From positions 32,001 through 96,000 of the IMG/VR virus record IMGVR_UViG_3300033074_001927: a DNA stretch of 64,000 nucleotides. One strand, written 5' to 3'. This document shows positions 24,106-49,709 of the stretch, in pieces; position 1 is the first letter of the stretch, and each line of letters begins with the position of its first letter. The position numbers and the translations under genes are program-made. Below the pieces are notes generated by a model, which was given only the letters and a program-made list of their open reading frames with translations, was not told where the DNA came from and did not search any database. The DNA is from a virus. Its lineage: Duplodnaviria > Caudoviricetes.

Positions 24106-26704
24106 AGGTAAACGCTCCTCCTCTCATTGGATTCCCACCATTTCCATTGAGAGGCTGTTTATTGACGGGCACATTGTAAGAAGACATAAAGTTAGTAAGA
24201 CGCTCTGGCAATATTCTGGCACCACCGCTATTTAGAAACAGAGCAATAGTAGCCCAGTCTTCTTTTGTCAGCTCTCCAAATTTCCTTGTATATGACTGTA
24301 ACTGGTATGTTGTTGTACATCCACCGTCAGTGCTAAAAGTCATTGAAATAGAACTTATGTTAGAATTTCTATCAACAGCTTGTCCAAGAGTATATTTTGG
24401 ATATGATTCCACTGCTATTGTGCCAGAGAACAGCTCTTTTTGTGCAGACGCAATGTTGTCAACCTTGGCTTGCATGGCAAGAGCCATGAGCGATATTGAA
24501 CCAAATTCCCACGGAGCAAACCCATCATCCTGAATAACTTCAAGACGACCGAACTCTATTTCATTGATGCGCGACGGAAATATTGGACCATAGCGCAAAT
24601 ATCTAGAACGGGTCGGTATGTATACGTTAACTGGTTGGTATGCCTTTGGATGACTTATTGTAAACCCAGGGCCAACAACGGATGCTATGTTTTGCGCTAT
24701 CTTGCTTACAACAAATGCCTGGTTTCCATCTGCCTCCACGCCTATCACGTCTTCGTTATTTACTTCATTTCCGCCATTTATTCTTGCCTGTATCGCAGAG
24801 ATTTTTGCCACAACGCTTGTTCTTTGAGAACTAACTCTATCCAGCTCTCTTATTTTGAGAGTTCTCTTAGTTCCATCTAGAAGTTCATCAATCTCAGCAT
24901 TAAGATCTCTTTGCCTGATCGCTAGAGATTCCTCCCTCTCTTGTAGTGCGCTTAATTTTGATAGCAGATAGTTTGATGTGTCAGACTCAGCTATGTTTAT
25001 TATTTGCTTAAGTGCATCGTCAGCCGATGGATCTAGAGTTTTTTCCGTAATTGGTGACTCTATTCTCACAACGCCATCCTTATCTATTGTGCATGCAACA
25101 AATATGGATGTTGTTGGAGATGCTGCCTCGTAAGTATAGTGGGACTTATCCATTTTTATTACATAGTTGGTAGGATCGAGTACGTCGTTTTCCATTCGTA
25201 TGATGGCATTATTTGGCTCGACGCCAGTATTTTCGAAGGTTTTGCCATAGGAGGTTATGTTTCGGAAAACAACACTATCTCCAAAAGATTCTCTAGGAGT
25301 GGATATAACATTTATTACTCCTGTAGGCGCTCCATACAAGAACTCTACAAATGCCCTCGTCCTACCATCTTCCTGTCTAAAATATTCTAGTGGGTTGTTG
25401 TTAAAGCTAGTTGCATCTCTTGTCCAACACGATTCTATGATTTCATCAAAAACATCCTCGTGAACAAAACGCTTACCATATGTTGATGTCGCATGTCCGC
25501 TTAGCTTTTCATAAACCTTTCCCACCACCTCTGAAAAGTCCGTTTGCAGATCCCTAGTTTTTCTATTTTTGTTTTTGAAAAGATTGTTAACGCTTACATT
25601 TTCTTGAACATCTGCAAGATTTGGTATTATTGTTTTTGCATACGAGTCTAACAGCGTCCCACCATACCTAGAGAATCCACCACCTCCTCCGCTTTCTGCC
25701 GGTATTGTTATCCACGCCTCCCACGACTGCTTACCTCCTAGAACAGCCCTCATTTCATCTTCGGTCATCAGGTACGCAGCAGATCCGCTCTCCTGACTAA
25801 GATCTAGAGGCTCATTAGCAAGTCCAGCTATCGGAACTCTTTTAATAGATTCTATAGCAGCCCCAAGCAAAACCGCACATGCAGAGTCGGTCTTGAGTTC
25901 AACTCCAGACGTTGCAGTAATTACCTTTTCTGGATGATCGTCTAAAAATTCTTGCAAACTAAGTTCTATATTGTCTTCTTTTCTATCTATTACCTTAACT
26001 GTAACAACAATTGTGTTATTTACCACAGAGCTTTCAACAAACCAGTCAAAAGAGTTCTTTTGTGCAATGTCTTCAATGACAGAAGATAGCGGCGAAAAGT
26101 TGGTATTGATTAAAAAGTCGCCAGACACATAGTTGTCAACTTCACTTAAATCGAAACTGTATGTGTCTCCCAAGATATTTACTGTCTGCTGCGGGAAGCT
26201 AAATGTAAAATTACCAATAGTAAGCGAGCCACCGCTTATTGCTTTTGAAAAGCTTCTATATGGCATTCCAGCCTGTGTCCAACCAGAAAAGTTCCAGGCT
26301 TGAGCATCTACGCTAAATGCTCCAAATACATCTATAAGTTTACAGTTAGTATTTCTTACGCCATCTATTATAGCGCTTGATCCTGGATTGATAATAACAG
26401 GTAGGTTAGACATTATTTGTCGTGGATCGCTAATATTTATTCTTATAAATCTACCACCAACATTCCTTAAGTCCAGATCATATTTTGTTATGATTCCACC
26501 AAAGCTCCAATTATTCCCAACTTCTACTGTGTAGTATCTGCCAACCTCTGGGTGCTGGAAAGCAAAGCCGTTCTGAGGGTCTTCGGCCAATGTGACGGTT
26601 ATTGAACTAGGGTTGCTTGAAAAACCAGTATTTGCGCTAATATGCTTAATATATGCGCCTAAAAACGTTGGTGGAGAATTCAGTCCAAGAGTTGTTACTG
26701 TCAT
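24098..26704 (-). CDS. Tail-tip/baseplate hub-like protein
   Basis: Downstream of the tape measure; N-terminal hub-like pattern (SSITVTLAED...FGGII...INISDPR). Confidence 0.55.
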   Translation of the reverse strand: MTVTTLGLNSPPTFLGAYIKHISANTGFSSNPSSITVTLAEDPQNGFAFQHPEVGRYYTVEVGNNWSFGGIITKYDLDLRNVGGRFIRINISDPRQIMSNLPVIINPGSSAIIDGVRNTNCKLIDVFGAFSVDAQAWNFSGWTQAGMPYRSFSKAISGGSLTIGNFTFSFPQQTVNILGDTYSFDLSEVDNYVSGDFLINTNFSPLSSVIEDIAQKNSFDWFVESSVVNNTIVVTVKVIDRKEDNIELSLQEFLDDHPEKVITATSGVELKTDSACAVLLGAAIESIKRVPIAGLANEPLDLSQESGSAAYLMTEDEMRAVLGGKQSWEAWITIPAESGGGGGFSRYGGTLLDSYAKTIIPNLADVQENVSVNNLFKNKNRKTRDLQTDFSEVVGKVYEKLSGHATSTYGKRFVHEDVFDEIIESCWTRDATSFNNNPLEYFRQEDGRTRAFVEFLYGAPTGVINVISTPRESFGDSVVFRNITSYGKTFENTGVEPNNAIIRMENDVLDPTNYVIKMDKSHYTYEAASPTTSIFVACTIDKDGVVRIESPITEKTLDPSADDALKQIINIAESDTSNYLLSKLSALQEREESLAIRQRDLNAEIDELLDGTKRTLKIRELDRVSSQRTSVVAKISAIQARINGGNEVNNEDVIGVEADGNQAFVVSKIAQNIASVVGPGFTISHPKAYQPVNVYIPTRSRYLRYGPIFPSRINEIEFGRLEVIQDDGFAPWEFGSISLMALAMQAKVDNIASAQKELFSGTIAVESYPKYTLGQAVDRNSNISSISMTFSTDGGCTTTYQLQSYTRKFGELTKEDWATIALFLNSGGARILPERLTNFMSSYNVPVNKQPLNGNGGNPMRGGAFTFG

Positions 26705-28692
26705 GTTTGAGTATGCGTCCAGGAAACGTTACGAGTAAATACCAGGGTTCGTTTATTAAATGTATACTGATCAGCTGTCTTAAACACCCCAGAGGCTATC
26801 GGTTTCTCGCCCCTCGAGTGTTCAAGCATTGTGTTGTTTACCAAAATATCAGATTCGGATAGTGCAGCAAGCTCCAATTGATATTGAGTGGCCGTTGATA
26901 TTGGTCCACAGGTTATTCCGCTTGGGGTCATACTATATTGGATACGTAGACGTTTTTCTCTCTGCGTAACTGTACCTTGGTCCTGCAATATTGGACCGGT
27001 AGACTTGAGTGGTATTGGAATAATCGCAATAACCTGTCCAGGAAGTTGATAATCAACCTCAATGACTTCGTCAGAAATAAGTGGATTGTCTGACAGGTAT
27101 CTATTGTCATACCTGTAGTCGTATGTAACTATGCCTCCGCGCTTATTGTACCCGATCGTTGTGCTTATTGGATTTATTCCAAGACACGATCCGCTTGGAA
27201 TAAGGTCTTCTGCTCTTCCGCGAATAAGCGGCATGATTGTGTTGTAAAATGCGCCAGAAGCGTTAGTGAATCTGTCTGTAGAAGATGTAGAACTTTCTGG
27301 CGAAAGTCCATATACACTACCATTTATGCTTATTGTTACTGTAGCAGTTTCTATGTTTTGTTCCCTGCTTGACTGCCACTCTTCCCAATATCCAGATACG
27401 CTTTGGTCTCTGTATACTTTTGTCAGACTAAAACTTTTTTGCAGATCATCTCTTTCTGCACTAACAGATTCTATATTACCAGAATAGGAGCTAGAAAAAT
27501 ACGGTTCTATATAACTATCAATTGGGTAGTTATTAGCGACACAGTAATTAATGGCGTGCTCTATGCCAGACGTGCTGGACAGGGAGACTCTTGCGGATGT
27601 TGTAACAGACTGAGTAACACTACCATCATCATTGCGCGTTAGTGAGCGCGTTATTGCCCTATCTTGTAGCGGGTCTTGCTGATCAACACCATAGTCTACT
27701 GAGTATGTTACCGTGCCTGCAAACCTGTTATCGGACCTGCTCTTGCTTAAGATGCCCGTAGTACTATAGAAGCTTATTTGTGGAGCTACAATGTCTTCAA
27801 ATGCAGTAATGGCGTTGTCTAGGCGAGAGAATGTATCGTCTCCGTAGCCTTGCACTGTTCCATTGACCGCAGTAGACAGTTGTAGTATCCCACTACCAGT
27901 CAGCTCCCATGAGCTCTCTATGGTCCTGTCGTCTTTATAGTTTCCAGAACTTAATACCCAGCTCTCATCTATAGAATATGATCCGGCCGTAGTGTCTGAG
28001 TTTTCAGAACGAGTATGATTGAACTCAAACAGATTGTCTACATCTAATATTGAAGAAGTGTAGGGGCTTTTAATAAAAAAGCTTAGTGTTTTGTCTATGG
28101 TATTTGATCTAGATAAAACAAAATCTTTTGCATTCTCTAATGCGCCAGTTGGTGCTCCAATGTCATTTATGCCAACAGCGCTTATTGAGTGAGTTACAGT
28201 TACGGTATCATCGTCTTGTTGCTGAAATGCCCAAGTATCAGAGAATGTACTTATCCTTGCGTCGGCGTCTGAATAATGTTCTGTAGAAAATGCAACAGTA
28301 TAGTCGCGCTTAGTAACAATTTGACTTAGATCAAAGTTTATAGAATCTACTCTTACATGTTCCGAAAGAACGGCATAACCAGATGCATCTACGATAAGAA
28401 GATTTCCATAGTCTTCATCTAGAGCCGATTTTAGCTGATCGCTTTTACGATCCAATAGCTCAAGACATGTTGCTTCAGAATTTACACCAGACAACTCTGG
28501 AAGGTCTGGAAGTAACGTGCCTTCAAACGTAAATGTCTTTGTAGTCGCAATCCTTCTTTGCTCGCCATCTATAATGAGAGATGTAGATTCAACGTCTTCT
28601 GACATGAACGGAACCGGACTGAAACAGTAGGCCAGCCCATCTGACCGCCTAATGTAATACATTCTTGTTCCAGAATTAAAATTTACAGGCAT
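26701..28692 (-). CDS. Distal tail/baseplate structural protein with repeated beta modules
   Basis: Position; recurring segments such as VTHSISAVG, AVNGTVQG, INGSVYG, AGSYS/AGTVTY/GGIVTY. Confidence 0.55.
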   Translation of the reverse strand: MPVNFNSGTRMYYIRRSDGLAYCFSPVPFMSEDVESTSLIIDGEQRRIATTKTFTFEGTLLPDLPELSGVNSEATCLELLDRKSDQLKSALDEDYGNLLIVDASGYAVLSEHVRVDSINFDLSQIVTKRDYTVAFSTEHYSDADARISTFSDTWAFQQQDDDTVTVTHSISAVGINDIGAPTGALENAKDFVLSRSNTIDKTLSFFIKSPYTSSILDVDNLFEFNHTRSENSDTTAGSYSIDESWVLSSGNYKDDRTIESSWELTGSGILQLSTAVNGTVQGYGDDTFSRLDNAITAFEDIVAPQISFYSTTGILSKSRSDNRFAGTVTYSVDYGVDQQDPLQDRAITRSLTRNDDGSVTQSVTTSARVSLSSTSGIEHAINYCVANNYPIDSYIEPYFSSSYSGNIESVSAERDDLQKSFSLTKVYRDQSVSGYWEEWQSSREQNIETATVTISINGSVYGLSPESSTSSTDRFTNASGAFYNTIMPLIRGRAEDLIPSGSCLGINPISTTIGYNKRGGIVTYDYRYDNRYLSDNPLISDEVIEVDYQLPGQVIAIIPIPLKSTGPILQDQGTVTQREKRLRIQYSMTPSGITCGPISTATQYQLELAALSESDILVNNTMLEHSRGEKPIASGVFKTADQYTFNKRTLVFTRNVSWTHTQT

Positions 28693-28700
28693 TTGATCAC

Positions 28701-31700
28701 CTAGTTAAAGAAATTTCCTGTTGGTATAGACGCAACTAAGGTAGCAGGTAGTGGGAAGTAGTTGTGCGCAGGACACGCCTCTTTACTATTAACTCCGCTT
28801 GTTGTTCCTATCATTGTTCCGTATATGGTTGATATGGGGAAGTTTGACCCAATAACGAATCCATTAATGCTATCGCTAAATGTTCCACTAATGCCAAAAA
28901 GCCATCCATTTATTTCGTCTCCAACAAATCCGGCCCCACTCATGTATGCATTTATTGAACTAGCCGCTTCTTCATGCCCAACCAAGAATCCATGTATTAT
29001 AGAATCGTCAGCTCCTGCGGATACGTATCCAAAAATATGCTCCCAATAACCTGGCGGCGCCATTAGATAACCATTTATTTGCTGAAATCCATCATGTGCC
29101 TTTAGATAGCCATTAATCCAGTTGGTGCCTGGAATGACATTTGATGTTGAAGAACCTCCACCTCCTGGGCCTCCACCAACCAATCCACCTCCACTAGGAA
29201 CTAGCGCCTCACTGCCCAAATATCCCCATATACTAGATATTGGATAGTTGCCCATCAAATACCCGTTTATACTAACGCTTTCCAAATCCTCCGCGCTCAA
29301 ATAACCATTTATTATTGACTGTGGTCCAATAAAAAACTCGCCATTTCCATTCCAGCCAGGTAAATACGAATTTATATAGCTTACATCTCCAGAGGGTGTA
29401 AACATATATCCATTTATTACTTGATCGCCAATGCCAAAACGAGCATTAAGATAACCAGCTATGCTACCACTAAATACACTTTGGCCATATGTATTCACTA
29501 TGCCATTTATATAACTCTCGGCATCAAAAGCTTTTACATAACCGAATATTTGATTTTGTCCGCTTGGTATGTCTCCTGGTGCTGATGCGCCGATAATATA
29601 GCCATTTATTCCTTGATCCCAGTTTGCAAGTAAAATTCCATTGATGTTAGATTCATCCCATCCAGTCCAAACAAGCATGTAACCATTTATGGATCCAGTT
29701 GGATATGTAACAGCAAACTCGCCAGAATTGACTGCAAGCATGTAACCATTTATAGAGCCATCAGTATTGGCATATAAGTAACCGTTTATTGAACTAACAA
29801 AATCTGGATCTACAGCTGATAGTAAATATCCATTAATCGAACTATCGAATGGCGCGCCATACATGTAGCCATAAATTTGTTCTGAATAGTTTGTATTCAT
29901 GTAGCCATTTATGATGCCAGTTGCAACGCCCTGCTCACCTTTTATGAAACCGTTTACGGACCATAGTGGCGGACCCGGCACGCCACTAACATTATCTATC
30001 CAGGCCGCTCCATACGTAAACGGATCAGTCGTAGAGCCCCTTATATATTTCCATCTTGCAGTATATGTTGATGCGTCTAGAGTTGTTGTATGAGTTAGCC
30101 AATTGTTAAATGATCCAGTCACACTAAGATGAACTGTTTCTGTATTAAATTCATCTATTGTAGAAAATTCAAAAACATCATCTTGATTTTGATCAAGCCT
30201 ATAGTCAAACGCTATATACCTCTTGTTGGCATTAAACTCTTCTACGCTAATATCAAGGTCTACCTCTACAACCCCGCTTGAACCAGGATATATCCCGCTT
30301 GATGGTATTGGGCCAACTGGAGAAACTAGTCCCGATGCGTCTGCTGCAGGCTCGCTGATTAACGAAAAACCATCTCCATTTCCGTTTGTTGCGGCCAAAT
30401 AATAAAATAGCCCAGATGGGACTAGGCCATTAGCATATGATGGCTCTTCTTGCGTTGGCAGCACAACGTCATGCGTAAAATCGCCACTAGCTACCGTATA
30501 CCACGTAAAGTCTCCATAAGACCTCCATGTTGCTGGAAGCTCTCCTCGTTTTCTTCTAAACCTCTCTATATATTGGCGACGAACTTGCGGAACGTTAAAA
30601 TATGTATGGTCTGCTGTTGTAGTTTGATGTGCAGTAGTCGAAGGGCCAAACAGCCTTATTTCACTTATTCTTCTGCCGCTAGTTGTATAGGCTGTCGTAA
30701 AATTAAGCCTAACATACCTTGCGCTTATCGGATCAATGAGTTGATAGAATCCCTGCGACCCCGGCTGAACTTCTACTTCTAGCTCATTTGCAGTAAAGCG
30801 CCTAAGCCTAGTTCCAAGACTCGCATTACCAGATGGAATTGTTTGAATATAAGAAAAGTTTGTGCCATCATGCGAGGCATACAGATCTATCTGCCCTATG
30901 TCTCTATTGTTTGTGGCCGCGCTTGAGCTGCTTTGACCAACAATTTCTATTCTATCTATTACTCTACTCTTATCCATTTCAAGAGTTAGATAGCTGCCGC
31001 TACCAACAAGCCCGTAAGTATTCACATCTCCATCAAACATGAGAGGGATGTCTGCATGAAAAAACGCATCTGATACGCCAACAAATATGTTTTCGTCACC
31101 AGAGGTTGCGGTATAATCTATTTGATAGTATGGCTGATTGTAGTGTGAGCGAACGGCAGGAGACTCATCCATGTTCCATATAACTAAATTTGAGCCACTA
31201 GGATAAGTTGATGTATAGCTGTTTGTTACTATTAGTTGAGATTTAAAATCATTACCACTTGGAGCAGTAGGATGCTTAAGAGCCTTGAAGTTTTTATAGA
31301 AGCACCTTCCGTTATATCCACCAGCAACATCATGCGAAACTTGTGACGTAAAACGCATGCCGGATGGATATATGTCGGCAGGAGCCGTATAGATGCGATA
31401 GCTGGTGCCATCATGGAATGGGCGTGAAGCTGTTCTTACGATGCATTGATGGCCGGCACTATTTTTTTGTTGCCAATACCAATACATGTTGCCGTAGCTG
31501 TCAAATGAAAAGTCACAATTTGTTCCAGATCCAGGAAAGTCGCCACCAACGCCATATATACCAGACTGTGGTATTTGGTCCCGCCAATCTATAGTCGCAG
31601 TTTCTACTACCTGCCCATCATAAAGAACGGACGACCTGGAGTCTAGGCGCGTAAATGTTTGACCTCCGCTAATTTGATAGTTTCCCCACAAATCATTGCC

Positions 31701-32516
31701 AGAAGAAGAACAGGTAAAGGAAGTCAGGCCAGTATATGGCAGCGTGCCACTTCCAATGCCCATCTTGCCGCAAAACGGCTCTTCTCCAGACCCAAGGTAT
31801 CGTGGGAAAAATCCCTGAACATGCCAGAAATCAAAAGAACTATTTCTTATTACTGGTATTATTTTTCTGTCTACATCATCATAGTATGCAACACCTGCGC
31901 CATTGCCATTATCACCATCAGCATAAGTGATTGGGTAGCCTCCATTAGTGCCAGCATTATCTTCTCCTATGGTTTCTTTTAAGAAGAAGCCGCTAGAGTG
32001 CGGGTAGCCCATATAGTAGAGGTCAACGTCATTTGCGGCATCTTTTGCACCCACGATACAGGTAGGGAAAGTTGTAAATGGCAGGTCAAAGCCCGACTCA
32101 AATTCCTTTACGCTTACTGAGCCCTGAAAGCCAGGCGCGGTGCCAGAATCGCCAGCCGTGCAAAATCCAACAGGGTCGGCTTGGCCGCTAGCCTTGGTCC
32201 AGCCGCCGCCAGACTGCTTGCCCAAAAATTGGTAGCAGCCGCTATCGTTATACCTAAACACACAATGGACATGGCCGCGCGGATCCATGAATGTGTCAAA
32301 GTTGTTGTGCACACTAAAGTCGTCGATAGGCCCAATGTCCTCTGGCTCACTCCACCCATTTCCACTATTTGTTGAGCGAATGAATGCTAGGCGAGAAGTC
32401 CCCGACGCAAAAGCCAAAAACAACTCTCCGTCGTTTGGGTCTTGCCAAAACGATCTGCCCCACTGAGGCAGGCTTATGTTGTAAAGGCCAGTTACGGCGG
32501 TGGAGAAAATATACAT
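28701..32516 (-). CDS. Large tail fibre/receptor-binding-like protein (BNR-like N-terminus, discoidin-like domain, C-terminal INGY repeats)
   Basis: STNSGNGWS Asp-box-like motif; FDGD...YASHDGTNF...ARYVRL...ISEIRLFG (F5/8-like); about 25 INGY repeats. Confidence 0.65.
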   Translation of the reverse strand: MYIFSTAVTGLYNISLPQWGRSFWQDPNDGELFLAFASGTSRLAFIRSTNSGNGWSEPEDIGPIDDFSVHNNFDTFMDPRGHVHCVFRYNDSGCYQFLGKQSGGGWTKASGQADPVGFCTAGDSGTAPGFQGSVSVKEFESGFDLPFTTFPTCIVGAKDAANDVDLYYMGYPHSSGFFLKETIGEDNAGTNGGYPITYADGDNGNGAGVAYYDDVDRKIIPVIRNSSFDFWHVQGFFPRYLGSGEEPFCGKMGIGSGTLPYTGLTSFTCSSSGNDLWGNYQISGGQTFTRLDSRSSVLYDGQVVETATIDWRDQIPQSGIYGVGGDFPGSGTNCDFSFDSYGNMYWYWQQKNSAGHQCIVRTASRPFHDGTSYRIYTAPADIYPSGMRFTSQVSHDVAGGYNGRCFYKNFKALKHPTAPSGNDFKSQLIVTNSYTSTYPSGSNLVIWNMDESPAVRSHYNQPYYQIDYTATSGDENIFVGVSDAFFHADIPLMFDGDVNTYGLVGSGSYLTLEMDKSRVIDRIEIVGQSSSSAATNNRDIGQIDLYASHDGTNFSYIQTIPSGNASLGTRLRRFTANELEVEVQPGSQGFYQLIDPISARYVRLNFTTAYTTSGRRISEIRLFGPSTTAHQTTTADHTYFNVPQVRRQYIERFRRKRGELPATWRSYGDFTWYTVASGDFTHDVVLPTQEEPSYANGLVPSGLFYYLAATNGNGDGFSLISEPAADASGLVSPVGPIPSSGIYPGSSGVVEVDLDISVEEFNANKRYIAFDYRLDQNQDDVFEFSTIDEFNTETVHLSVTGSFNNWLTHTTTLDASTYTARWKYIRGSTTDPFTYGAAWIDNVSGVPGPPLWSVNGFIKGEQGVATGIINGYMNTNYSEQIYGYMYGAPFDSSINGYLLSAVDPDFVSSINGYLYANTDGSINGYMLAVNSGEFAVTYPTGSINGYMLVWTGWDESNINGILLANWDQGINGYIIGASAPGDIPSGQNQIFGYVKAFDAESYINGIVNTYGQSVFSGSIAGYLNARFGIGDQVINGYMFTPSGDVSYINSYLPGWNGNGEFFIGPQSIINGYLSAEDLESVSINGYLMGNYPISSIWGYLGSEALVPSGGGLVGGGPGGGGSSTSNVIPGTNWINGYLKAHDGFQQINGYLMAPPGYWEHIFGYVSAGADDSIIHGFLVGHEEAASSINAYMSGAGFVGDEINGWLFGISGTFSDSINGFVIGSNFPISTIYGTMIGTTSGVNSKEACPAHNYFPLPATLVASIPTGNFFN
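28807..29960 (-). repeat. About 25 copies of the peptide repeat (S/I)-I-N-G-Y-(L/M)
   Basis: Counted in the translation from SVNGFIKG to TIYGTMIG. Confidence 0.9.
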
Positions 32517-35500
32517 TAGAACCCAGAGCCTATGATGTTATTAAGTGCCGTTCCCCTATTTATCTCTACTTGAACTAATTTTTGCAAAGTAGACCTTATT
32601 TCATCTAGTTTCTTTGTTAGCTCAGATACAGTATTGTTCTTAAATTCTTCTATACCAAATCCACCAGCAAATTCATGTCTAATGACGTGAGTTAGTTGTA
32701 CTTCAAGGTCGTTTAGGTCCACTTCTATCTTATCATTCTGGATTACGTCTTTAAGAGTATTTATTGTTTCATTAAACTCTTTTGTTCGTTCACCGAATGA
32801 GTCAATAACGGTAGCGTTCGCACCAAGAGCCTCTGTATAGTCCGTTAAAACATCGTTTGTGCTAGAAATGGTCGTCTGTAGGCGCTTGTTAAAATCTGAT
32901 GCGTCGAATAGTGCCCTATCTCCAATACCAGTCTTCTCAGACAGTTCTTTTATTTTGTCAGAAAAGTTTTCTATTGAGGTTGTGCCATTTTTTAATTGCG
33001 TGGAGAGCTCTTCCGCCAACATCGCCGTCGTTCTTAGTTTTTCAAATTCTGCCTCAAGCTCTTTTGTTTTTGTGGTTATGGCGTCAAAAGCCGCTGGTAG
33101 TTTTGTGTTTTTGAATATGTTATTTTGTTCCTCTAGCACTATTTTTCTATTCTTTTCAAGATCTAGTAGAGCCGACTCTAGCCTTATTCTTTCTCCAGTA
33201 ATGTTAATGAGGCGCGTATTTTCTGCCTCGATTGCATTCAGGGCTTTATTTGCTCCTGCCTCCGCTCCTTCTCTCTGTCTAATTATATCGCCGCCCTGAC
33301 CTGGGCGTGTTACTGGCGCGCGTGCAACGATGTCGCTTAATAGTTCTGGCGGTATAATCAGTTCAATGCCTGCCTGGGCGGCAAAATCCAAACTCTTTAA
33401 TATTTCTGGCACAATGGATGGGAATTGCTTGCCTAGTTGCCTGACTCTTTCCTGCAGTATGTCCGCAACGATTGGGAGATTTTTCTCTATTTCCTGCCTA
33501 CTCAAGTCTCCGCTTCTATCAGTGTCTAGCTGTCTTGATCTGTCGCCAAGCCTTCTTCCACCGATTGTTCCTTCAAAAAGAGCCCTTAAAGAAGACGCAA
33601 GCTTTGTTGAATTTTTTACAAATTCTTGTGGAGAATTGATGATAAGCTTGCCTACTTCTGCCTCTTTCTTTATCCTGGCATCCAGTATGGAGATTAGTTC
33701 TTTTTGTTTTTGCAGCTCTATGCGACGTTCAGACAGTATAGCTTGTACTGACTTTTCTTGGTCAGACAATAATTTTTTGTCTTGCTCAATTTTGTCAGTA
33801 AGTGCTTGAACCTCTCTCTTCAAGTTGTCTTCTTTAAGCCTTAATTCAGTAGAGTCGGCAGTTATTAGTTGTTGTTGAACCTGAAGAAGTTCTTTGAATT
33901 TTTTGCTAACGTCTTGAACATCAGCATTTAGTGCCTGAAAGCCCTTTTGTCCTGGTCCAAAATTATTTCTACGAGCATCAATGCCTCCAGCAACACCTAT
34001 TTTGGCTATAGAATTTGCGACGAGTCCAAGGCTTTTGCTTATTTCAGATACTTGCTCGCCAAATGATTGCGGCAATATAGAAAATCTTTCACCTTCCCTA
34101 ATTCTTGATCTATCGTTTTGTTGTGTAGCACTAGTAAGGCGTAGTCCAAATATGTCGCTCAATAGTTTTCTAGATTCTTCTGCACTAGACCTTAGTTGGT
34201 CTGCACCAGCTTTGTATGACTCAAATATTCTCTTGGCAGAATTTTCAGAGGCAGTAAGAAGCTTTTCTCGTTCCTCTATTTGTAGCTTAATTAGTCCTAC
34301 GGAAGCCTTAAATGTAGATGTTTGAACCTTGGAAAGCTCCCTTGTTGCCGTTGTTATGTCAGAGATGTTGCCCTTTGCTTGCGCATCAGTGAGGGCACTT
34401 ATCCTGATTGCAGACTTAATAGCCAGAGCTTCTAGTTCTGACCTCAGCTGCAATTTGTCAAATTTAACATCTATATTAATTTGTTCTTCTTCAGATATTC
34501 TCTTTATCTTTCCAATAGTATTTTCTATTTTTCTTAAGCTATCTATGCCAGCAGATCGTATTTCACTAAATATCGAAACATCTTCTAATCGGCTTTCAAT
34601 TCTTAGCCTTCTCTCTGCATCGTCCGCTTCTGCTTTTGATAGTTTTGCAGAAACGAGCCTCAGTGCCTTGTTTTTTTCAAGCAACGCATTCTGCGAACCT
34701 TCTGTAGAAAGGCCGATCAGCCGATTTTGTTGAATGCGGTTTTCTAGTTCAGATATCGACGACAAAAGTCCTTCACGCGTTCTCAGTGCATCTTTTATTT
34801 CTTTAGATGCTCTTTCTTCTGCCGCTCGCTGAGACTCTATTTGTCTGGCCGTGCTAGCCCTTGCCTCATTAGCAATTCTTAACTGCCTATCTCTCTCTTT
34901 AGATCGAGCGGTCTCCTTTAGCCTCTTCTCAAGATCATTTTGTCCACCAAGGCTAAATAGTGCATCTCCAATAGATTCGGCCGCCCCCCCTACAAGGCCT
35001 AGTATTCCACCAATGACGGCTCCTTTTGGCCCAAACGCAGATCCAAGTTCTGCGCCAACGGCCGCGCCAAATCCTGCACTAGCAACACGTTCATTCCCAC
35101 TAAACGAAGCAGCGGCACCTCCAGCAGCAATTATATTTCCTGCATTGCGTTTAGCAAAAGCAGCGACTCTGTTTGCAGCATTTGTTTTTTCTAATATTGT
35201 ATTTCGTATTGATGCTTCCTGCTTCAATAACAGATTTCTTTGAGCGATAAGGTTGTTTACCCCACTCTCTGCACGAGCTATCTGTCCACGAGTTGCTACA
35301 GAAGATGTTTTTAACTTATTTACAACCTCTTCTTGAGCTACTATTTTTGCAGAAGTTTTCTGTATATTTTCTTGTATTTTATTATTCTGTAAATTAAGAG
35401 CGAGCGCTTCTTTTTGCGTTATTAGCTTATTCTTCTCCAATTCGGTCGTAGCATTTATTAAATTTTCATTATCCTTACCGGCAAAAGACAGTCCAGAGAC

Positions 35501-39115: not shown

Positions 39116-39118
39116 GCG

Positions 39119-41340: not shown

Positions 41341-42465
41341 TTATGTGAATGTGCTGTGCGTGATTGTTAGATCGTTAAAGTTGCTGTAGTTATAGGTAAT
41401 GGTCATGTTATCGCCGCCAGCTTCACCACCACCCATCTCAACGCTAGTCAATCTATTCTTTTGCCCAAGATCAACTCGCAAGCCCTCACAAAGCTCAAGG
41501 ATTATTTCCTCGTTAACTGTGTTTTGTGAACGCTGACAGTTTTCGTCAAACGCTACTGCGTTAACGAAATCGCCCTGAGAAGTGATAACCTCTATAGCTG
41601 TAGTTACTTCAACTGGGAATGTAACATATTTAGTAAACGGCCGCTTTCGACCAAGCTCAAAAATATCTTCTCGACCAAGATCAACAGTGACCGTAATGTT
41701 TTGGATATGCTCTACGATACCTTCTAGCGTGCCTGAAGAGCTGACGCCTGGTATCTGAACAGGTAGGCGAGAGTTGTCCAGTCTCCAGCTCTCGCGACGC
41801 TGAACGCCAGAGCCAATAACCTGGGCGTCCTCTAGGACTTGGAACTGTGTGCCTGACGGCCATCCAACAGGCACTGCGTCGGTGCTTGCGCCTTCCGCTG
41901 GATAAGAGTCTGCAGGACCGGTAACGCCTTCAAAGTCTGCCCAAATCTTGTCGTTGCCTACTAGTGTTACAGACTCGGTAAAGTTGCCGTCTACCGGCAT
42001 TGTAAGGGTCCATGAACTCAGATACATGCCTGAGCCAAGCACCATAGACAGTGGTAGGCCGCTGGCGCGCGTCTGAGTATCTGAATAGATGCTAATGGCC
42101 ACGTCTGTCTGATAGTTGGCTGTTCTGTCAGTAAGAAGGCTGGTGCCACGAGGACCAGTCGTCATAAACCATAGAGGCTTGGTGCCATCAAGCACTTTCT
42201 CTACTGTAACTTCGATCTCTGGCTCGGCCTCAATATATTCGTAAATCTCAAGCTGGCCTAGCTCGAAAACCTGCTCAAAGTTAAACGTGGTTGTCATGCC
42301 GACGGACTGAACGCCACGACCAACTTCCCATATCGCTTGTCCAAGCGTTCCGGTTGGCGCAACGTCAACGCCAGGCTGTATAACAACAACCTCGTTTGTT
42401 GCAGGACCGCTGTTGTCCTTAAAGGCCACGCTATGAATAGCGTAGTATACTCTGTTGTTGGGCAT
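41341..42465 (-). CDS. Major tail tube protein with internal duplication
   Basis: Beta-rich and acidic, with its own promoter and strong SD; duplicated motif FEQVFELGQ / REDIFELGR. Confidence 0.75.
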   Translation of the reverse strand: MPNNRVYYAIHSVAFKDNSGPATNEVVVIQPGVDVAPTGTLGQAIWEVGRGVQSVGMTTTFNFEQVFELGQLEIYEYIEAEPEIEVTVEKVLDGTKPLWFMTTGPRGTSLLTDRTANYQTDVAISIYSDTQTRASGLPLSMVLGSGMYLSSWTLTMPVDGNFTESVTLVGNDKIWADFEGVTGPADSYPAEGASTDAVPVGWPSGTQFQVLEDAQVIGSGVQRRESWRLDNSRLPVQIPGVSSSGTLEGIVEHIQNITVTVDLGREDIFELGRKRPFTKYVTFPVEVTTAIEVITSQGDFVNAVAFDENCQRSQNTVNEEIILELCEGLRVDLGQKNRLTSVEMGGGEAGGDNMTITYNYSNFNDLTITHSTFT

Positions 42466-42496: not shown

Positions 42497-42510
42497 CTTA
42501 TACACATAAA
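42497..42510 (-). promoter_or_regulatory. Putative late promoter TTTATGTGTATAAG
   Basis: Intergenic, upstream of the tail tube gene; identical 14-mer at 53155..53168. Confidence 0.7.
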
Positions 42511-43419
42511 CTAAAAATTCGGGTATACCTTGGCAGTAAACCTAATGGCAAGTCTTTCAATATTTTGTAGCGATTCTAGTTTTCTACTACTTATTTCGTC
42601 AATATATATTCGTCGCCAAGGAAATGCGCCCTGAGCATAAGAATAGGATGAAAAATTCTCATTTATGTCACCCATATAATTAATTGGCGTTGGCGCAGTA
42701 TTAAAATCTATAGATCTTAATACACTATGCTCATGTAGTCCAATCAAATCATCTACTTGATCTATTTCATAAGTAGACGTAGCATAAAGATATATGTGAC
42801 CTTTTAATACCGTCACATTTGATGCCGCGCCAAGCTCATATCCCTTATGGTCCATAGTATCTATGTCGATGACTATGTGCGGCAATGTTTTTACATCTTT
42901 TTCTGGATAAATAATAACGCCGGTAATTTCAGGATTGTCTTTCCATGAAGTTTCAAGTAACAGATCTTTTGTCTGGTCTTGAAAAAGGTTAGAAAGGCTG
43001 GTTCCAAACGTTTTATATGAAAATGCAGCTTCTACTGTGCCAGATGGTATGCCTGACGTAAAAATAACGCGGCCATTTTCAAAATCAACAGAGTGGTCGA
43101 AGGCGGCATCATAGTCTGGATGCGCACTGTCCTTTGCCCTAAAAACGCCATTATAGTATATGCCGCTGCAAACAACTGGCTCAACACCACTTCCAGCAAC
43201 TATGCCACTTTCCCATACCCAGTTTTTGAAGGCGCTTTGCCACACATAAAGGTCGGGATATGAAGAATCTTCAACAGGCACCAGCTCGCTAATATTATTG
43301 CCGTAAACATCGACAGTGCCACTTTCTACTGTTGAGAAAAACCCATCTCTCAACAACGTATCATTTAGCCACAGTAGCATGTTTGCTTTTACTTGGGCTT
43401 TAGGTCTGTAGCGCGGCAC
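42511..43419 (-). CDS. Neck/tail-terminator-like protein
   Basis: Directly upstream of the tail tube; LPHIVID...GYELG pattern. Confidence 0.5.
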   Translation of the reverse strand: MPRYRPKAQVKANMLLWLNDTLLRDGFFSTVESGTVDVYGNNISELVPVEDSSYPDLYVWQSAFKNWVWESGIVAGSGVEPVVCSGIYYNGVFRAKDSAHPDYDAAFDHSVDFENGRVIFTSGIPSGTVEAAFSYKTFGTSLSNLFQDQTKDLLLETSWKDNPEITGVIIYPEKDVKTLPHIVIDIDTMDHKGYELGAASNVTVLKGHIYLYATSTYEIDQVDDLIGLHEHSVLRSIDFNTAPTPINYMGDINENFSSYSYAQGAFPWRRIYIDEISSRKLESLQNIERLAIRFTAKVYPNF

Positions 43420-44128
43420 GAATAGCCTTCCTAATCTGCCCCAACATGTAGGTAGAAGTATATTTTTTCTCTAACCTGCGCTGAAGGGCTCCAAATGTTG
43501 CGTCGCGTCCAACCGGACTTACCAGCAGTGGGCTGCCACTTATTCCTACTGGCAACATATGTCCAACTCCGGTTCTAGATCTTTTGGCATTAAATCCAAT
43601 GTCGCCCCTACCAACATATTGATGCTGTGGTGAATAAACGCCATCTTCTATATAATTTTTCATCCACATTATTTCACTACCCTCTCCTCGGCCAGAAGGA
43701 TTGTTTTCTGCACTATTTGAGCGGGTAGATATGTATTTGTTTATTGTGGAATTGTAAAATTTTTCAGTATTGATGTTGTAAGATGCGACTATTGACTGTT
43801 TGTTTTTAAAGCTAACCCCAACATTGGCAACGCCAAGCTTTGGAATAAGCGGCACCGTTACTTTATCTAGTTTGTTAAAATCTGGACGGCCGCCAATACC
43901 TATGCCGAGCTGGCCGACTAGCTCCAATCCGTTTGGTTGCTTAAATGGGTTGAATAGGTCATTGGCGGCCAATACAACTCTTTCTGTCTCTATCCTAAAC
44001 ACTTTTTCTACGTTTTTTCTAGCTTCTGTTTTTTTTCTATTAATATGGTTGATTACAACTTCTTCTATATTTTTCCTATCTTTTGCGGAAATTCTCGCAT
44101 TAATTTTCATTACTATTTTATTGGCCAC
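43400..44128 (-). CDS. Basic neck/tail-completion-like protein
   Basis: Position between the head-closure and terminator genes; Lys/Arg-rich. Confidence 0.45.
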   Translation of the reverse strand: MANKIVMKINARISAKDRKNIEEVVINHINRKKTEARKNVEKVFRIETERVVLAANDLFNPFKQPNGLELVGQLGIGIGGRPDFNKLDKVTVPLIPKLGVANVGVSFKNKQSIVASYNINTEKFYNSTINKYISTRSNSAENNPSGRGEGSEIMWMKNYIEDGVYSPQHQYVGRGDIGFNAKRSRTGVGHMLPVGISGSPLLVSPVGRDATFGALQRRLEKKYTSTYMLGQIRKAIRAALQT

Positions 44129-44654
44129 TGTTTATTACCTTCCAGAATGCCACAACATAGAGGAGATTTGGGCCCCAGCCAGTTTGGCGAGGCTCCTCAA
44201 ATAGCTGCACTCTTACACCGTCTATGGTGGCGCCAATAGAATTTTTTATATGTTCAAAAGACTCTATGGTTGTTTTTGTTCTAACAAAATTGTATCCAAG
44301 GCGCCCATAAACCGGCTCTGTTACAGCTAATGGTCCAGATCCTTTATTAAATGGTTCATCAGTCCATCGTATATTGGCTCTATATATAGTATAGTTGGGT
44401 TCTATGATAAAACCTTGACCCTTACAGGTGGAGCAGACAATGCCGTTGGTGCTCACATATTTTTTGTAAAATGCGTCAAAGCGACAGTCCGGCGCAACAC
44501 AAGGCTGTTTGGATGGCTCGAGATGAACAGAAATGTCTCTTCCTATATCTGTAAGTACAGTATCCATAGCTCGGCGAAAATTATCGCCGTTATCCAATAC
44601 TCCAGATGTTCCTGGCAGAAAGCTCTGCATGTTGCTTATTAGGCCCATTACCAC
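44118..44654 (-). CDS. Head closure/stopper-like protein with Zn-finger insert
   Basis: Follows the adaptor-like gene; CVAPDC...CSTCKG. Confidence 0.5.
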   Translation of the reverse strand: MVMGLISNMQSFLPGTSGVLDNGDNFRRAMDTVLTDIGRDISVHLEPSKQPCVAPDCRFDAFYKKYVSTNGIVCSTCKGQGFIIEPNYTIYRANIRWTDEPFNKGSGPLAVTEPVYGRLGYNFVRTKTTIESFEHIKNSIGATIDGVRVQLFEEPRQTGWGPNLLYVVAFWKVINSGQ

Positions 44655-45061
44655 ACATCCAGCATAGAGTCCATGCGGCGTAGCTTTTCTAACTTAATGG
44701 CTTTTTCCAGTTCTGCGCACGGGTTGTGGGCGCTATTTAGATAATTTGTGCGGGCGTTGGCGCGGCTTGCGGCTTCACCTCTGTCGTCCAGCATTTGTTC
44801 GCCGTCTTTTACCATGCGGCCCCAGCCGGCGGATGAGCTATTGCCATCGCCATTGAAGTCACTATTAATATCTATATTCAAAATCATGCATTCGGCTTGT
44901 AAAAGCACAAGATCGTGCAGATCATTACCGCTAGGATAAACGTTACCAGAGGCGTCAACAGATAGTTCCTCCTCCGTACCTGTCAAATACAAAGTTCTGT
45001 TTATGCGTCTAGTTGCTTTTTCTAGCACCTGTATTAGTTGTTCATTGGTAAAACGAGGCAT
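44648..45061 (-). CDS. Head-tail adaptor-like protein
   Basis: FTNEQLIQVLEKATRRIN...LVLLQAEC helical adaptor pattern; AAGGAG SD. Confidence 0.55.
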   Translation of the reverse strand: MPRFTNEQLIQVLEKATRRINRTLYLTGTEEELSVDASGNVYPSGNDLHDLVLLQAECMILNIDINSDFNGDGNSSSAGWGRMVKDGEQMLDDRGEAASRANARTNYLNSAHNPCAELEKAIKLEKLRRMDSMLDVW

Positions 45062-45072
45062 GTCACATCTCC

Positions 45073-47937: not shown

Positions 47938-48123
47938 CTACCACCCACCAGGAAAATAGCTGTTGGTTTGCGCTACACCCGACACATCAAGCTCTGATTG
48001 AGGCGCAGTCAACGGCCCACTGTTGTCGTAAATTATAACCTCTCCGCTTGAACCAGCAAGTCCTATTGGGCCACCGTCTGTTGTAAAAACTACTATTCCA
48101 CTACCGAATCCAGCCCAACTCAC
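47938..48123 (-). CDS. Small virion-associated protein
   Basis: 61 aa, tightly packed between fibre genes, ends NSYFPGGW, contains four SG dipeptides. Confidence 0.6.
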   Translation of the reverse strand: MSWAGFGSGIVVFTTDGGPIGLAGSSGEVIIYDNSGPLTAPQSELDVSGVAQTNSYFPGGW

Positions 48124-48124
48124 A

Positions 48125-48982
48125 TTACACTATATTCCACTGTGTTCCATTATAAATGAGAGTAAAAGAGCCATAATTTTGTCTAATTTTTATTGTTGCA
48201 TTTCCATCTATAGTGTTGCCATTACCATCTATTGTGACTGGGTTTGGGTTTGTGGCATTGCCATCGCTGTCCTTTATATAGTGGATCTGACCATTATTTG
48301 GAGATGGATCTAAGTCAATAGTAGTAGGAGCGGCGGTAACAAATACAACATAGTCTGATTTGCCAAGAGTGATGCCAGAAGACGTGGAACGTATTTTTAC
48401 ATTTTGGCCAAAATCAAGCGTTGCTACGTCATTTATACCATCTATTTGTAGTTGCAATATGCCGTTTGCTGATAGTCCAAGCACTCCAGACGAAACAGAA
48501 TAGAGGCCAGCAGTATTGTCACCAGAAAAAGTAACTGACGGAAGCGCCGCAGTTCCATTTTCAAACTTTGTAGACTGGCCAAGTCGCACATACTCTATTG
48601 TTGTGCCATTCGATCTTATTACATATTCTTCTGGACCAACTGGAAGGGCATCCCATAACGTGCCGGTAGTGCCAACAATGAGATCTCCCTCTGAAGGAGA
48701 GTGCGGAATTGTGTCAACGTGATATATACCTAGAAGGTCGTGCGGACCAATTCCTCCACCTTGTCCAGAAGAAAAAGCCCATTGGCTTCCATCAAACCTA
48801 AAATAGTCGCCAGAAGATGGAACTCCACTTTGAAATGGAAGGCCCCAAATGCCGCTAACAATGGTTGTTTTTAGTCCACCAAAAACATCTCCGCCGATAG
48901 GCTCGGCACCAATAAGTCTATCATCTTGCGTACTATGGTATATATAACCGCTTGGTCCAACTCCAGGCCAACTCATAGACAC
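48125..48982 (-). CDS. Fibre-like virion protein
   Basis: GDLIVG...WDALPVG, GTAALPSVTFSGD fibre motifs; C-terminal domain ending YNGTQWNIV. Confidence 0.65.
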   Translation of the reverse strand: MSMSWPGVGPSGYIYHSTQDDRLIGAEPIGGDVFGGLKTTIVSGIWGLPFQSGVPSSGDYFRFDGSQWAFSSGQGGGIGPHDLLGIYHVDTIPHSPSEGDLIVGTTGTLWDALPVGPEEYVIRSNGTTIEYVRLGQSTKFENGTAALPSVTFSGDNTAGLYSVSSGVLGLSANGILQLQIDGINDVATLDFGQNVKIRSTSSGITLGKSDYVVFVTAAPTTIDLDPSPNNGQIHYIKDSDGNATNPNPVTIDGNGNTIDGNATIKIRQNYGSFTLIYNGTQWNIV

Positions 48983-48986
48983 CTAC

Positions 48987-49709
48987 CTATATAATATTCC
49001 ACTGAGAGCCGTTAAAAATCAAAGAGATAGATTGATAATTATTTGAAAAACGAAATGTGCTATTTCCATCTATTTGATGTGATGCACTAGTAACAAATAT
49101 ATTATACACCCAGGCATTTCCGCCAATATCTTTGATAACAAGCATTTGGCCAATCGATGGGCTTGTGTCCAAGCTAACATATAGAGGAGCTGACTGCGTG
49201 TTGTTAACAAGAATGACGGCATCGGAAGGCAGCGCCGAATAATTCGTATTTATTATGGTTGGCGTTATAGACAGCGAGCCGTTTATTACTATGGTGCCGT
49301 TAAATATACCAGAGCCTCCAACAACAATGTTGTCAATACCTGGAGGATCGTAAGAATCAGATCCGGCGCCATCGTCTGATATATCGACGCGCAACAAGTC
49401 TATAAAGCTTAGCGCCCCACTAATGCTACTAAGCACAGTCCAGTCGTCGTCAATATTGACCCTAAGATGACGCATTAGGCTCATTTCGCCACTACTTTCA
49501 GTATATGTTCCGGATGAATAAACATCTCCCACATCTATCCTAAGCAAATCCATCATGGAAGAAGATGTCATTATGCCGCTGGCGATGCCTGAGTCGTCTC
49601 CTATGTTAACTCTTACGTGTGACAGAAGAGATGAATTGATTACGCCAGTAGTATAAACCACCTCTGCATCGTCCCTAACATTTACTCTTATGTGGCCAAG
49701 TAAACTCAC
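48987..49709 (-). CDS. Virion protein with five LRVxIxDD repeats and a fibre-tip C-terminal domain
   Basis: HIRVNVRDD, HVRVNIGDD, LLRIDVGDV, HLRVNIDDD, LLRVDISDD; C-terminus FNGSQWNII resembles that of 48125..48982. Confidence 0.65.
   Translation of the reverse strand: MSLLGHIRVNVRDDAEVVYTTGVINSSLLSHVRVNIGDDSGIASGIMTSSSMMDLLRIDVGDVYSSGTYTESSGEMSLMRHLRVNIDDDWTVLSSISGALSFIDLLRVDISDDGAGSDSYDPPGIDNIVVGGSGIFNGTIVINGSLSITPTIINTNYSALPSDAVILVNNTQSAPLYVSLDTSPSIGQMLVIKDIGGNAWVYNIFVTSASHQIDGNSTFRFSNNYQSISLIFNGSQWNII

Follow-up and report, generated by a model that had tools for sequence, protein, structure and literature searches.

The window analysed here is a 64,000-nucleotide stretch (positions 32,001 to 96,000) of the Caudoviricetes virus record IMGVR_UViG_3300033074_001927, and it carries a block of structural genes at 22312-59919 as well as a glycosyltransferase (GT) island that continues upstream of the window start (Table 1). 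The island covers approximately 16 kb and is larger than the cluster at 1..8005 that an earlier sequence-only reading had linked to SG-rich virion proteins in its proposal of a virion O-glycosylation system. That reading counted three GT4 and two GT2 genes, among which the three GT4s and one GT2 were recovered and the second GT2 proved a weak match. Upstream of the window lie gmd, a UDP-GlcNAc 2-epimerase gene and RmlC- and RmlD-like genes, together with genes for an SDR, a methyltransferase and a trypsin-like peptidase. The cysteines of the 545-aa GT4 insertion are invariant in the alignment (C267-x2-C270 ... C289-x2-C292). No membrane segments were detected in the island GTs or sugar enzymes by a hydrophobicity scan. 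The island is a genuine feature in its own right, a soluble glycan-building module.

Table 1 Genes of the glycosyltransferase island and the structural block discussed in the text (positions in the window).
Feature	Position	Strand	Remarks
GT2	2-736	-	solid; full ORF 268 aa, continues upstream past window start
337-aa GT2-like protein	2474-3487	-	weak sub-threshold match (E 0.006)
226-aa protein, VWA-like protein with signal-like N-terminus, 188-aa protein	within 2..4157	-	island members
N6/N4 DNA methylase	3450-4157	-	between GT2-like gene and GT4 genes
GT4, tandem pair (358 aa, 379 aa)	4154-5230, 5232-6371	-	Pfam
545-aa GT4 with four-Cys insertion and C-terminal DUF4214	6368-8005	-	Pfam; lineage core gene
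868-aa baseplate-region protein	24098..26704	-	SG 9, GS 4, expected 6.3; mild excess only
663-aa baseplate/tip protein	26701..28692	-	SG 12, GS 5, expected 5.2 (z 3.3); 2 PSG
1271-aa post-tape-measure receptor-binding fibre	28701..32516	-	strongest SG carrier
2199-aa tape measure protein	32516..39115	-	internal control: SG 11, GS 8, expected 12.7
374-aa putative major tail (tube) protein	41341..42465	-	role predicted from position and high conservation
302-aa neck or tail-proximal protein	42511..43419	-	"neck" label from position only
Three small fibre-like proteins (61, 285, 240 aa)	47938..49709	-	between capsid and neck genes
333-aa major capsid protein	50141..51142	-	PHROG major head protein; marker defining the lineage

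The 1271-aa fibre has a sialidase-like N-terminal region with an F5/8 type C (discoidin) domain (Pfam F5_F8_type_C) and INGY repeats in its C-terminal part. Its AF2 model is all-beta (pLDDT 82.7). A Foldseek search with the model ranked the Micromonospora sialidase 1eut first (E 6.6e-12) and also gave matches to phage tail proteins. The 285-aa and 240-aa proteins carry tail-fibre-like C-terminal domains (PHROG tail-fibre and baseplate matches), and no match to the tube protein was found in Pfam and PHROG searches.

Ser-Gly (SG) is the top over-represented dipeptide of the structural block, where 133 were found in the pooled proteins versus 87.9 expected (observed/expected (O/E) 1.51, z 4.8). 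The O/E is 0.93 for the reverse dipeptide GS and 0.70 for TG, and within-protein shuffling does not remove the SG excess, confirming the directional bias claimed earlier from hand counts. Non-structural genes of the same genome show no enrichment (SG O/E 0.94). At least 12 codon pairs are used for SG, at frequencies near the codon-usage expectation, indicating that the effect lies at the protein level and ruling out a DNA-level cause. The strongest signal is that of PSG (18 observed in structural proteins, 3.3 expected), so that the preference for this form, also claimed earlier, stands. Pro is 3.9x enriched before SG, and the motif typically takes the form hydrophobic-Pro-Ser-Gly, followed by Thr, Ile or Val. 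In eukaryotic proteoglycans, the Ser-Gly xylosylation site needs nearby acidic residues. The window's motif shares the dipeptide with that site but not its acidic flanks, D and E being depleted before SG (0.59x and 0.84x) and not enriched after it (1.07x and 0.84x). The likeness is superficial, and nothing in the analysis supports the proteoglycan-like coat that had been envisaged.

Among individual proteins, the hand counts of SG were reproduced exactly for the fibre, tip, 285-aa, neck, 61-aa, tube, 197-aa, portal and capsid proteins. The 1271-aa fibre holds 35 SG and 17 GS (16.4 SG expected, shuffle z 5.3), including eight PSG. The neck protein holds six SG and one GS (1.7 expected, z 3.6), the tube protein six and two (2.5 expected), the 285-aa fibre eight and two (4.1 expected) and the 240-aa protein six and four. 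Five SG are present in the 197-aa protein, four in the 61-aa protein and two in the portal. The major capsid protein shows no excess (one SG, 1.2 expected), nor was a Ser-rich tail noted at its C-terminus. For the tape measure, the earlier count of about eight SG was too low, but its lack of enrichment held, and tape measures of relatives are likewise not enriched.

The lineage to which the window belongs comprises more than 500 uncultured phages of approximately 120-200 kb, with at least 563 capsid-marker relatives in IMG/VR and at least 533 viral relatives of the 545-aa Cys-finger GT4. This GT4 is present in all five lineage genomes of 90% completeness or more, and homologues of the 358-aa and 379-aa GT4s occur in all deep lineage members checked. 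The island core, consisting of the three GT4s and, in most genomes, gmd, is thus conserved in the lineage like the capsid gene. Ten of 11 long lineage contigs are GT-positive; the sole negative is a 63%-complete fragment, and no GT-negative lineage member was found among the 11. All seven evaluable contigs with the fibre family also carry the island, making co-variation within this clade uninformative. Searches of isolate phages found no cultured member of the lineage. When 50,697 isolate phages were searched at the nucleotide and protein levels, the fibre, tip, tube and neck proteins had no relatives among them, and TerL (28%), MCP (26%) and GT (25%) had remote matches only.

The SG excess is conserved in this lineage. 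SG ranks first of the 400 dipeptides in six deep members, and the excess is kept in orthologues at 29-36% identity. The fibre family is small (45 members among 1.84e9 representatives), and all 35 full-length members have an SG O/E of 1.7-3.0. Orthologues of the 663-aa tip retain 7-8 SG, and those of the neck protein have 5-9 versus 1.5-2.7 expected, with an excess in each of the nine lineage genomes examined. The invariant columns of the neck alignment are S-G or T-G, and in the tube protein (79-80% conservation in the clade) three S-G columns are near-invariant throughout the lineage; S/T-G is kept in both proteins in all nine genomes, every one of which has the GT core. In the 285-aa family, SG positions turn over and the counts remain above expectation. 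Moreover, five members (G010, G012, G015, G022 and G025) have large SG-rich fibres without detectable homology to that of the window, suggesting a persistent lineage-specific pressure and not just inherited sites.

A mild bias of SG over GS is generic in phage tail proteins, as pooled GT-less coliphages have an O/E of 1.18 for SG and 1.02 for GS. Larger SG values are reached in lambda tails (1.55), T7 (1.57) and Bacillus phage PBC4 (1.97), and single proteins stand at 1.9-2.4, among them T7 gp12, the PBC4 RBP and J and H of lambda. No GT4 or GT2 was found in the whole genomes of lambda and PBC4. In the PBC4 RBP family, the SG excess is not conserved (0.3-2.4) and Ser is conserved at 37%, indicating that the clade-wide signal of the window's lineage is different in kind. 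PBC4 therefore holds as a counter-example for the size of the excess and fails for its conservation.

On our best reading, to which we give about an even chance, the SG excess is a selected, lineage-specific loop motif with a probably structural role, not a glycosylation sequon, and the GT island is a separate feature. A small hydroxyl residue would precede a conserved Gly at strand-loop junctions of all-beta tail, neck, baseplate and fibre proteins. Where Gly is kept at S-G sites, the preceding residue is Ser in 81% and Thr in 8%. S-G columns are shared at 67%, similar to D-G (75%), T-G (69%) and G-G (67%), as would hold for structural x-Gly positions of any kind. Of the 27 SG sites in the confident fibre model, 23 map to loops of the all-beta, sialidase-like architecture, and several N-terminal sites fall in Asp-box-like hairpins as judged by reading the sequence. 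In the low-confidence AF2 model of the tip protein (pLDDT 54), SG is found mostly at hairpin turns or just before strands. The mapping onto predicted structures proposed with the original claim thus places the motif in loops, but it does not discriminate between a structural motif and a glycan acceptor, since both predict exposed loops. Six results count against a structural role: replacements at S-G columns are skewed to Thr (T:A 68:15 versus 162:134 at other Ser columns), tight hairpins hold only four of the 27 fibre sites, P-S-G and P-T-G reach 5.5x and 3.4x expectation in the structural proteins, where P-D-G, P-N-G and P-A-G are not enriched (GT-less phages enrich P-x-G broadly), the PBC4 RBP family conserves neither its excess nor its Ser, non-homologous fibres of the lineage are SG-rich as well, and S/T-G is retained in the tube and neck of all genomes examined. 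A structural role is nevertheless suggested by the virion-specific, protein-level excess, the x-Gly-like conservation and the loop placement, and further by the SG bias of GT-less phages, the GT4s of members without SG excess and the mismatch with phage Che8 described below. If the motif is structural, the lesson is one of method: directional dipeptide excess is common in the tail proteins of phages, including those without GTs, and reading such an excess as a sequon calls for conservation controls, lineage-matched comparisons and chemistry.

The view closest to the original claim is that the Ser/Thr of S/T-Gly, especially of Pro-Ser-Gly, are O-glycosylation acceptors to which the soluble phage GT4s would add phage-made sugars before assembly. 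We consider this unlikely, but several observations are consistent with it: the motif is virion-specific, its hydroxyl is retained, it persists in the non-homologous fibres and in the tube and neck of nine genomes, and the GT core is universal in the lineage. The gene content of the lineage genomes points in the same direction. PF00303 (thymidylate-synthase-like) and PF00145 (C5 methylase) are absent from the lineage genomes G000, G001, G004 (100% complete) and G005, with control genomes matched. PF12851 (TET/JBP) is likewise absent, a weak result as its control matched nowhere. The initiating phosphoglycosyl transferases (Bac_transf or WecA/MraY type; PF02397 and PF00953) of a lipid-carrier-dependent O-antigen/capsule pathway are absent from G000, G004, G005 and G006, although phage GTs could act on host-primed lipid carriers. 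Soluble enzymes, no DNA-base route and no priming transferase make a cytoplasmic acceptor such as a virion protein plausible, and we infer by exclusion that a virion protein is the leading candidate acceptor of the island. The PDB matches of the 358-aa and 379-aa GT4s are generic GT4 donor domains only and say nothing on the acceptor.

Both claims underlying the proposal, the motif and the island, are real, but SG in excess of GS is not diagnostic of glycosylation, as GT-less phages reach a similar SG excess. The co-occurrence of motif and GTs is confounded, as every GT-positive genome comes from a single lineage in which no GT-negative member was found. G026 has all three GT4s with a structural-block SG O/E of 1.03 and no PSG excess; G023 has the Cys-finger GT4 with an SG O/E of 1.01 and no overall PSG excess; G017 has three GT4s with an SG excess that is weak overall and no PSG excess. 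No GT tracks the motif across lineage members. Further points against glycan acceptors are that the major capsid protein, the largest exposed surface, lacks SG excess, and that neither SG nor PSG is clearly avoided in non-structural proteins.

Among known systems, virion O-glycosylation is described for mycobacteriophages Che8, Corndog and Myrna (Freeman et al. 2023, as summarised in PMC12619734 and PMC12363180), with glycans reported there at the C-termini of capsid and tail-tube subunits. These phages resemble the window in having their own cytoplasmic GTs, whose genes lie apart from the structural ones and which could plausibly act on virion proteins; they differ in that the window's island has nucleotide-sugar synthesis genes and its capsid lacks the motif. 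Che8 gp6 and gp11, reported as glycosylated, have no SG excess, and Che8 gp108, gp109 and gp110 gave no significant match to the island proteins by blastp and phmmer (best E 0.06). The island GTs are thus unlike those of Che8 and only generically similar to solved GT4s. Another precedent is TibC, a heptosyltransferase whose targets in TibA are serines and not threonines of beta-helix loops, with S313 in Q-N-S-G-G among the mapped sites, and which grips its substrate with a four-Cys metal finger (PMC4358343). TibC/AAH acting on TibA/AIDA-I would correspond to the window in using a cytoplasmic GT-B that modifies many serines of a beta-rich, outside-bound protein (PMC4358343), and the finger may correspond to the invariant four-Cys insertion of the core GT4. 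However, the TibC donor is ADP-heptose, whereas the island encodes GDP-mannose dehydratase and UDP-/dTDP-sugar-type enzymes, and a phmmer search of PDB sequences with the 545-aa GT4 gave nothing at E<=0.001, indicating no close sequence relative there, TibC included. The resemblance is limited to the working principle. On a wider view, the soluble core GT4s of the lineage might O-glycosylate Ser/Thr-Gly loops on tube, neck and fibre, with the Cys-finger gripping beta-rich substrates as in TibC and Pro-Ser-Gly-beta-branched sites preferred, a scheme that we consider unlikely.

Large GT islands with other proposed targets are also known. The large lytic aquatic cyanophages P-SSM2, S-SCSM1 and S-SCSM2R likewise have many GTs and nucleotide-sugar epimerases/dehydratases, but they are T4-like myoviruses, and their islands were proposed to modify the host surface or DNA, with no virion motif linked (PMC12801897). 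DNA sugar-hypermodification clusters (Pyle et al., bioRxiv 10.1101/2023.12.21.572611) contain phage GTs related to LPS/teichoic-acid enzymes, sometimes near structural genes, and the window's island also holds a DNA methylase. Hypermodification relies on either a hydroxymethylase or the pair of a C5-cytosine methylase and a TET-like dioxygenase (bioRxiv 10.1101/2023.12.21.572611); the island's own methylase is an N6/N4-type enzyme. Should the S/T-Gly serines be acceptors after all, virion glycosylation would reach past the mycobacteriophages into a large environmental lineage, and an acceptor code for it would be readable from sequence, with a bearing on receptor recognition, particle stability and the perception of particles by hosts and grazers.

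Asn-Gly and Asp-Gly deamidate or isomerise readily. Virion proteins, which last for long outside the cell, could therefore have been selected for chemical stability, swapping Asn-Gly/Asp-Gly for Ser-Gly/Thr-Gly in loops, with the GT island unrelated, which we regard as improbable. Consistent with such a swap, D-G is the top dipeptide of non-structural genes (O/E 1.48) and stands at 1.11 in structural genes, where S-G leads; P-D-G is at 2.3x in non-structural versus 0.8x in structural genes, with P-S-G showing the reverse; and in the fibre family, Ser stands before 23 and Asp before four of the 79 conserved Gly columns. However, the structural block still shows N-G enrichment (1.36), N-G recurs in the INGY repeat of the fibre, and G026 and G023 lack the swap overall. 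It is also lacking in GT-less phages with equally exposed virions, in which P-x-G is enriched broadly (pooled PDG 2.35x, PNG 1.8x).

That composition, chance or a generic beta-turn bias alone produced the excess, with nothing lineage-specific, is very improbable: the single-protein values of lambda, T7 and PBC4 would favour it, but it is largely refuted by the survival of the excess after shuffling, the deep-member rankings, the uniformly SG-rich fibre family and the lack of conservation in the PBC4 family.

Whichever role the motif has, hundreds of phages conserve the soluble gmd-plus-GT4 core as they do a capsid gene. In addition, a 217-aa gene upstream of the island, of no recognisable family, tracks the SG-rich state (5/5 versus 0/2), which could be chance.

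The sequence-only reading had counted an excess of SG over GS in predicted exposed structural proteins of the window, and all of its hand counts were reproduced on recount apart from that for the tape measure (about 8), where the number is 11. When each protein is shuffled internally, the fibre (35 SG vs 16.4 expected, z 5.3), the tip (12 vs 5.2, z 3.3) and the neck protein (6 vs 1.7, z 3.6) each show a significant excess on their own. Compared with shuffled composition, SG is enriched in the structural block and not in other ORFs; with the block pooled (133 SG vs 87.9 expected, observed/expected (O/E) 1.51) it is the top-ranked of all dipeptides, with GS at 0.93. As SG is encoded by many codon pairs, the effect sits at the protein level. 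The PSG context also recurred: Pro is enriched 3.9-fold before SG, Thr, Ile or Val are favoured after it, and the tripeptides P-S-G (18 vs 3.3 expected) and P-T-G (9 vs 2.6) are over-represented. Our leading reading, about as likely as not, is that selection has favoured a Ser/Thr-Gly loop motif specific to this lineage in its all-beta tail proteins, and that the role of this motif is most likely structural; the glycosyltransferase (GT) island would be an independent, conserved, soluble glycan-building module.

Features of the window and of related sequences
Feature	Location	Strand	Remark
Large terminase	55891-57699	-	PHROG/Pfam
Portal	53599-55851	-	PHROG/Pfam, weak
Major capsid protein	50141-51142	-	PHROG/Pfam
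Tail-fibre-like C-terminal domains	in 285-aa and 240-aa proteins	-	PHROG/Pfam
Fibre	28701-32516	-	1271 aa
Tip	26701-28692	-	663 aa
Neck	42511-43419	-	302 aa, label from position
Tube	41341-42465	-	374 aa, putative major tail protein, label from position and conservation
Cys-finger GT4	6368-8005	-	545 aa
VWA-like protein	1246-1911	-	
Trypsin-like peptidase	L001:16172-16990 (upstream stretch)	-	
217-aa protein	genome 20264-20917 (L001:5264-5917)	-	~11 kb upstream of window
1200-aa ORF	61449-64000	-	continues to ~65051
Long GT ORFs	G020:C1:123612-126389; G024:C1:67277-70207		958-1014 aa
GS-rich 981-aa ORF	G023:C1 ~107.5 kb		structural block
GS-rich 1803-aa ORF	G026:C1:28218		structural block

The fibre family has just 45 members among 1.84 billion representatives. 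Orthologues at 29-36% identity retain 30-35 SG vs 16-17 GS, and all full-length members (35/35) have an SG O/E of 1.7-3.0 (pooled: SG 2.05, GS 0.98, PSG 151 vs 27.5 expected). The SG excess is conserved in the window's lineage, unlike in the receptor-binding protein (RBP) family of the GT-less Bacillus phage PBC4, where SG ranges from 0.3 to 2.4, Ser at S-G is conserved no better than other Ser (37% vs 42%), and D-G and N-G are conserved. Conservation at the S-G columns of the window's orthologues does not exceed that at D-G, T-G or G-G columns, which is the general behaviour of structural x-Gly positions.

Residues 1-850 of the fibre gave a confident all-beta model (pLDDT 82.7), whose closest structural match is a Micromonospora sialidase and which tail proteins of several phages also resemble. 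In this model 23/27 SG sites lie in loops (background 62%) and 4/27 in tight hairpins; in the low-confidence tip model SG falls mainly at hairpin turns or strand starts. The surface mapping proposed earlier thus places the sites mostly in loops, but it does not discriminate between readings, since the glycosylation and structural hypotheses both predict exposed loops. At its N-terminus the fibre carries a sialidase-like region that includes a discoidin domain, and at its C-terminus ~25 INGY repeats; binding or cleavage of a host glycan is a possible function. The tip model, of low confidence, predicts a module of four strands and one helix in ~5 repeats, a pattern that recalls duplications of the tube or hub type.

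The island had been described as three GT4 and two GT2 genes at 1..8005; three GT4 and one GT2 (genes at 2-8005) are solid, and the second GT2 is weakly GT2-like. An N6/N4 DNA methylase sits among them, and upstream of the window the island goes on with GDP-mannose 4,6-dehydratase (gmd), UDP-GlcNAc 2-epimerase, RmlC-like and RmlD-like enzymes, another SDR, a methyltransferase and a trypsin-like peptidase. A hydrophobicity scan found no membrane segments in the island GTs and sugar enzymes. Four lineage genomes, one of them complete, yielded neither a thymidylate-synthase-like hydroxymethylase nor a C5 methylase; TET/JBP gave no match in lineage genomes in a search that had no working control, and no initiating phosphoglycosyl transferase was found in the lineage genomes searched. 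These negative results make it unlikely that the island follows a known DNA-glycosylation route or forms a self-contained surface-polysaccharide pathway. By exclusion, a cytoplasmic acceptor such as a virion protein is plausible for the island GTs, which could also act on host-primed lipid carriers. Within the otherwise soluble island, the N-terminus of the VWA-like protein resembles that of a secreted protein with a signal sequence or of a lipoprotein, and the trypsin-like peptidase has one hydrophobic segment; both are missing from deep lineage members.

The lineage, defined by its capsid protein, comprises at least 563 contigs, with no cultured member found among isolate phages. For the Cys-finger GT4, IMG/VR contains at least 533 relatives, and the enzyme occurs in 5/5 lineage members at least 90% complete; its four-Cys insertion in the catalytic region (C267, C270, C289, C292) is invariant between the window and four related loci (L043, L044, L045, L046). 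In the two contigs with long GT ORFs the match comes as two or three separate segments, a sign of a possible inserted element such as an intein.

It is unlikely, in our view, that the phage GT4s O-glycosylate these S/T-Gly loops of virion proteins. The hydroxyl and virion specificity of the motif and the TibC/TibA precedent (PMC4358343) favour such a system, as does persistence of the motif in non-homologous fibres: G010, G012 and G015, genomes of the same uncultured lineage, encode SG-rich fibres without detectable homology to that of the window, and inherited sites therefore do not account for the whole excess. Against it, the argument is one of sequence and not of chemistry, the capsid is motif-free, some GT-positive members lack an overall SG excess, and GT-less phages show a similar excess. 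PBC4 reaches an SG O/E of 1.97 (its RBP has 21 SG and 9 GS, 8.7 expected), and no GT4/GT2 was found in the complete genomes of PBC4, lambda, T5 and T7. The size of the excess is therefore not diagnostic of a GT system, and SG>GS fails as a mark of glycosylation, being equalled in lambda, T7 and PBC4. Che8 served as the positive control: its capsid and tube proteins, reported to be glycosylated, contain 2 and 1 SG. The Che8 GTs are unrelated to those of the island, and summaries of Freeman et al. 2023 (PMC12619734, PMC12363180) place the Che8 capsid and tube glycans at C-termini.

SG statistics for the structural block of lineage genomes (deep members: major capsid protein 50-63% identical) and for coliphage tail proteins
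Source	SG O/E	GS O/E	SG rank	PSG observed:expected
Window	1.51		1	18:3.3
G010	1.70		1	23:3.8
G012	1.59		1	17:3.8
G015	1.53		1	20:6.5
G022	1.76		1	19:2.8
G025	1.49		1	14:6.2
G017	1.33		3	2:2.3
G026	1.03		143	11:9.8
G023	1.01		158	9:7.4
T4	1.01	1.06		
Lambda	1.55	0.92		
P2	0.96	0.96		
T7	1.57	1.34		
T5	1.21	0.98		
Pooled coliphages	1.18	1.02	16	

The proposed co-variation of SG with GTs was examined across the lineage. In 9/9 genomes the orthologues of tube and neck have 4-9 SG vs 1.5-3.7 expected, with S-G or T-G at the invariant columns. However, some GT-positive members lack an overall excess: the neutral G026 and weak G017 carry all three GT4s and gmd, and the neutral G023 has the Cys-finger GT4. 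The comparison is thus partly negative and still confounded by shared ancestry. No GT tracked the motif across the lineage genomes compared, and the neutral state of G026 and G023 stems from variable large fibres. Two structural-block ORFs, in G023 (94 GS vs 15 SG) and G026 (46 GS vs 12 SG), look like low-complexity repeats running in the direction opposite to the window's motif. The 217-aa protein, without a Pfam family, was found in 5/5 SG-rich deep genomes and is missing from G017 and G026, which could be chance.

At fibre-family S-G columns with Gly retained, the first residue is Ser in 81%, Thr in 8% and D or N in 2%; Ser replacements are skewed towards Thr (T:A 68:15 vs 162:134 at other Ser columns), and P-D-G, P-N-G and P-A-G tripeptides are at expectation in the window's structural block. 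That long-lived particles simply avoid labile Asn-Gly and Asp-Gly is a distinctly improbable account of the excess. Chance or generic bias is very improbable. In the rest of the genome SG stands at O/E 0.94.

The window comes from a single 118,892-bp viral contig (bases 32001-96000; CheckV completeness 57%, GC ~41%) with all long ORFs on the minus strand. Among 50,697 isolate genomes, no similar phage was found at the nucleotide level and no protein-level match to fibre, tip, tube or neck; Bacillus siphophage terminases share ~28% identity with TerL. Upstream of the terminase region, the 1200-aa ORF leaves the window at its high end, its in-window part not being enriched (3 SG vs 5.1 expected). 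Across the whole contig GTAC is strongly depleted (139 observed vs ~450 expected from base composition), TCGA is also depleted (238 vs 450), and GGCC and GCGC are ~2x over-represented, a bias that may reflect restriction avoidance.
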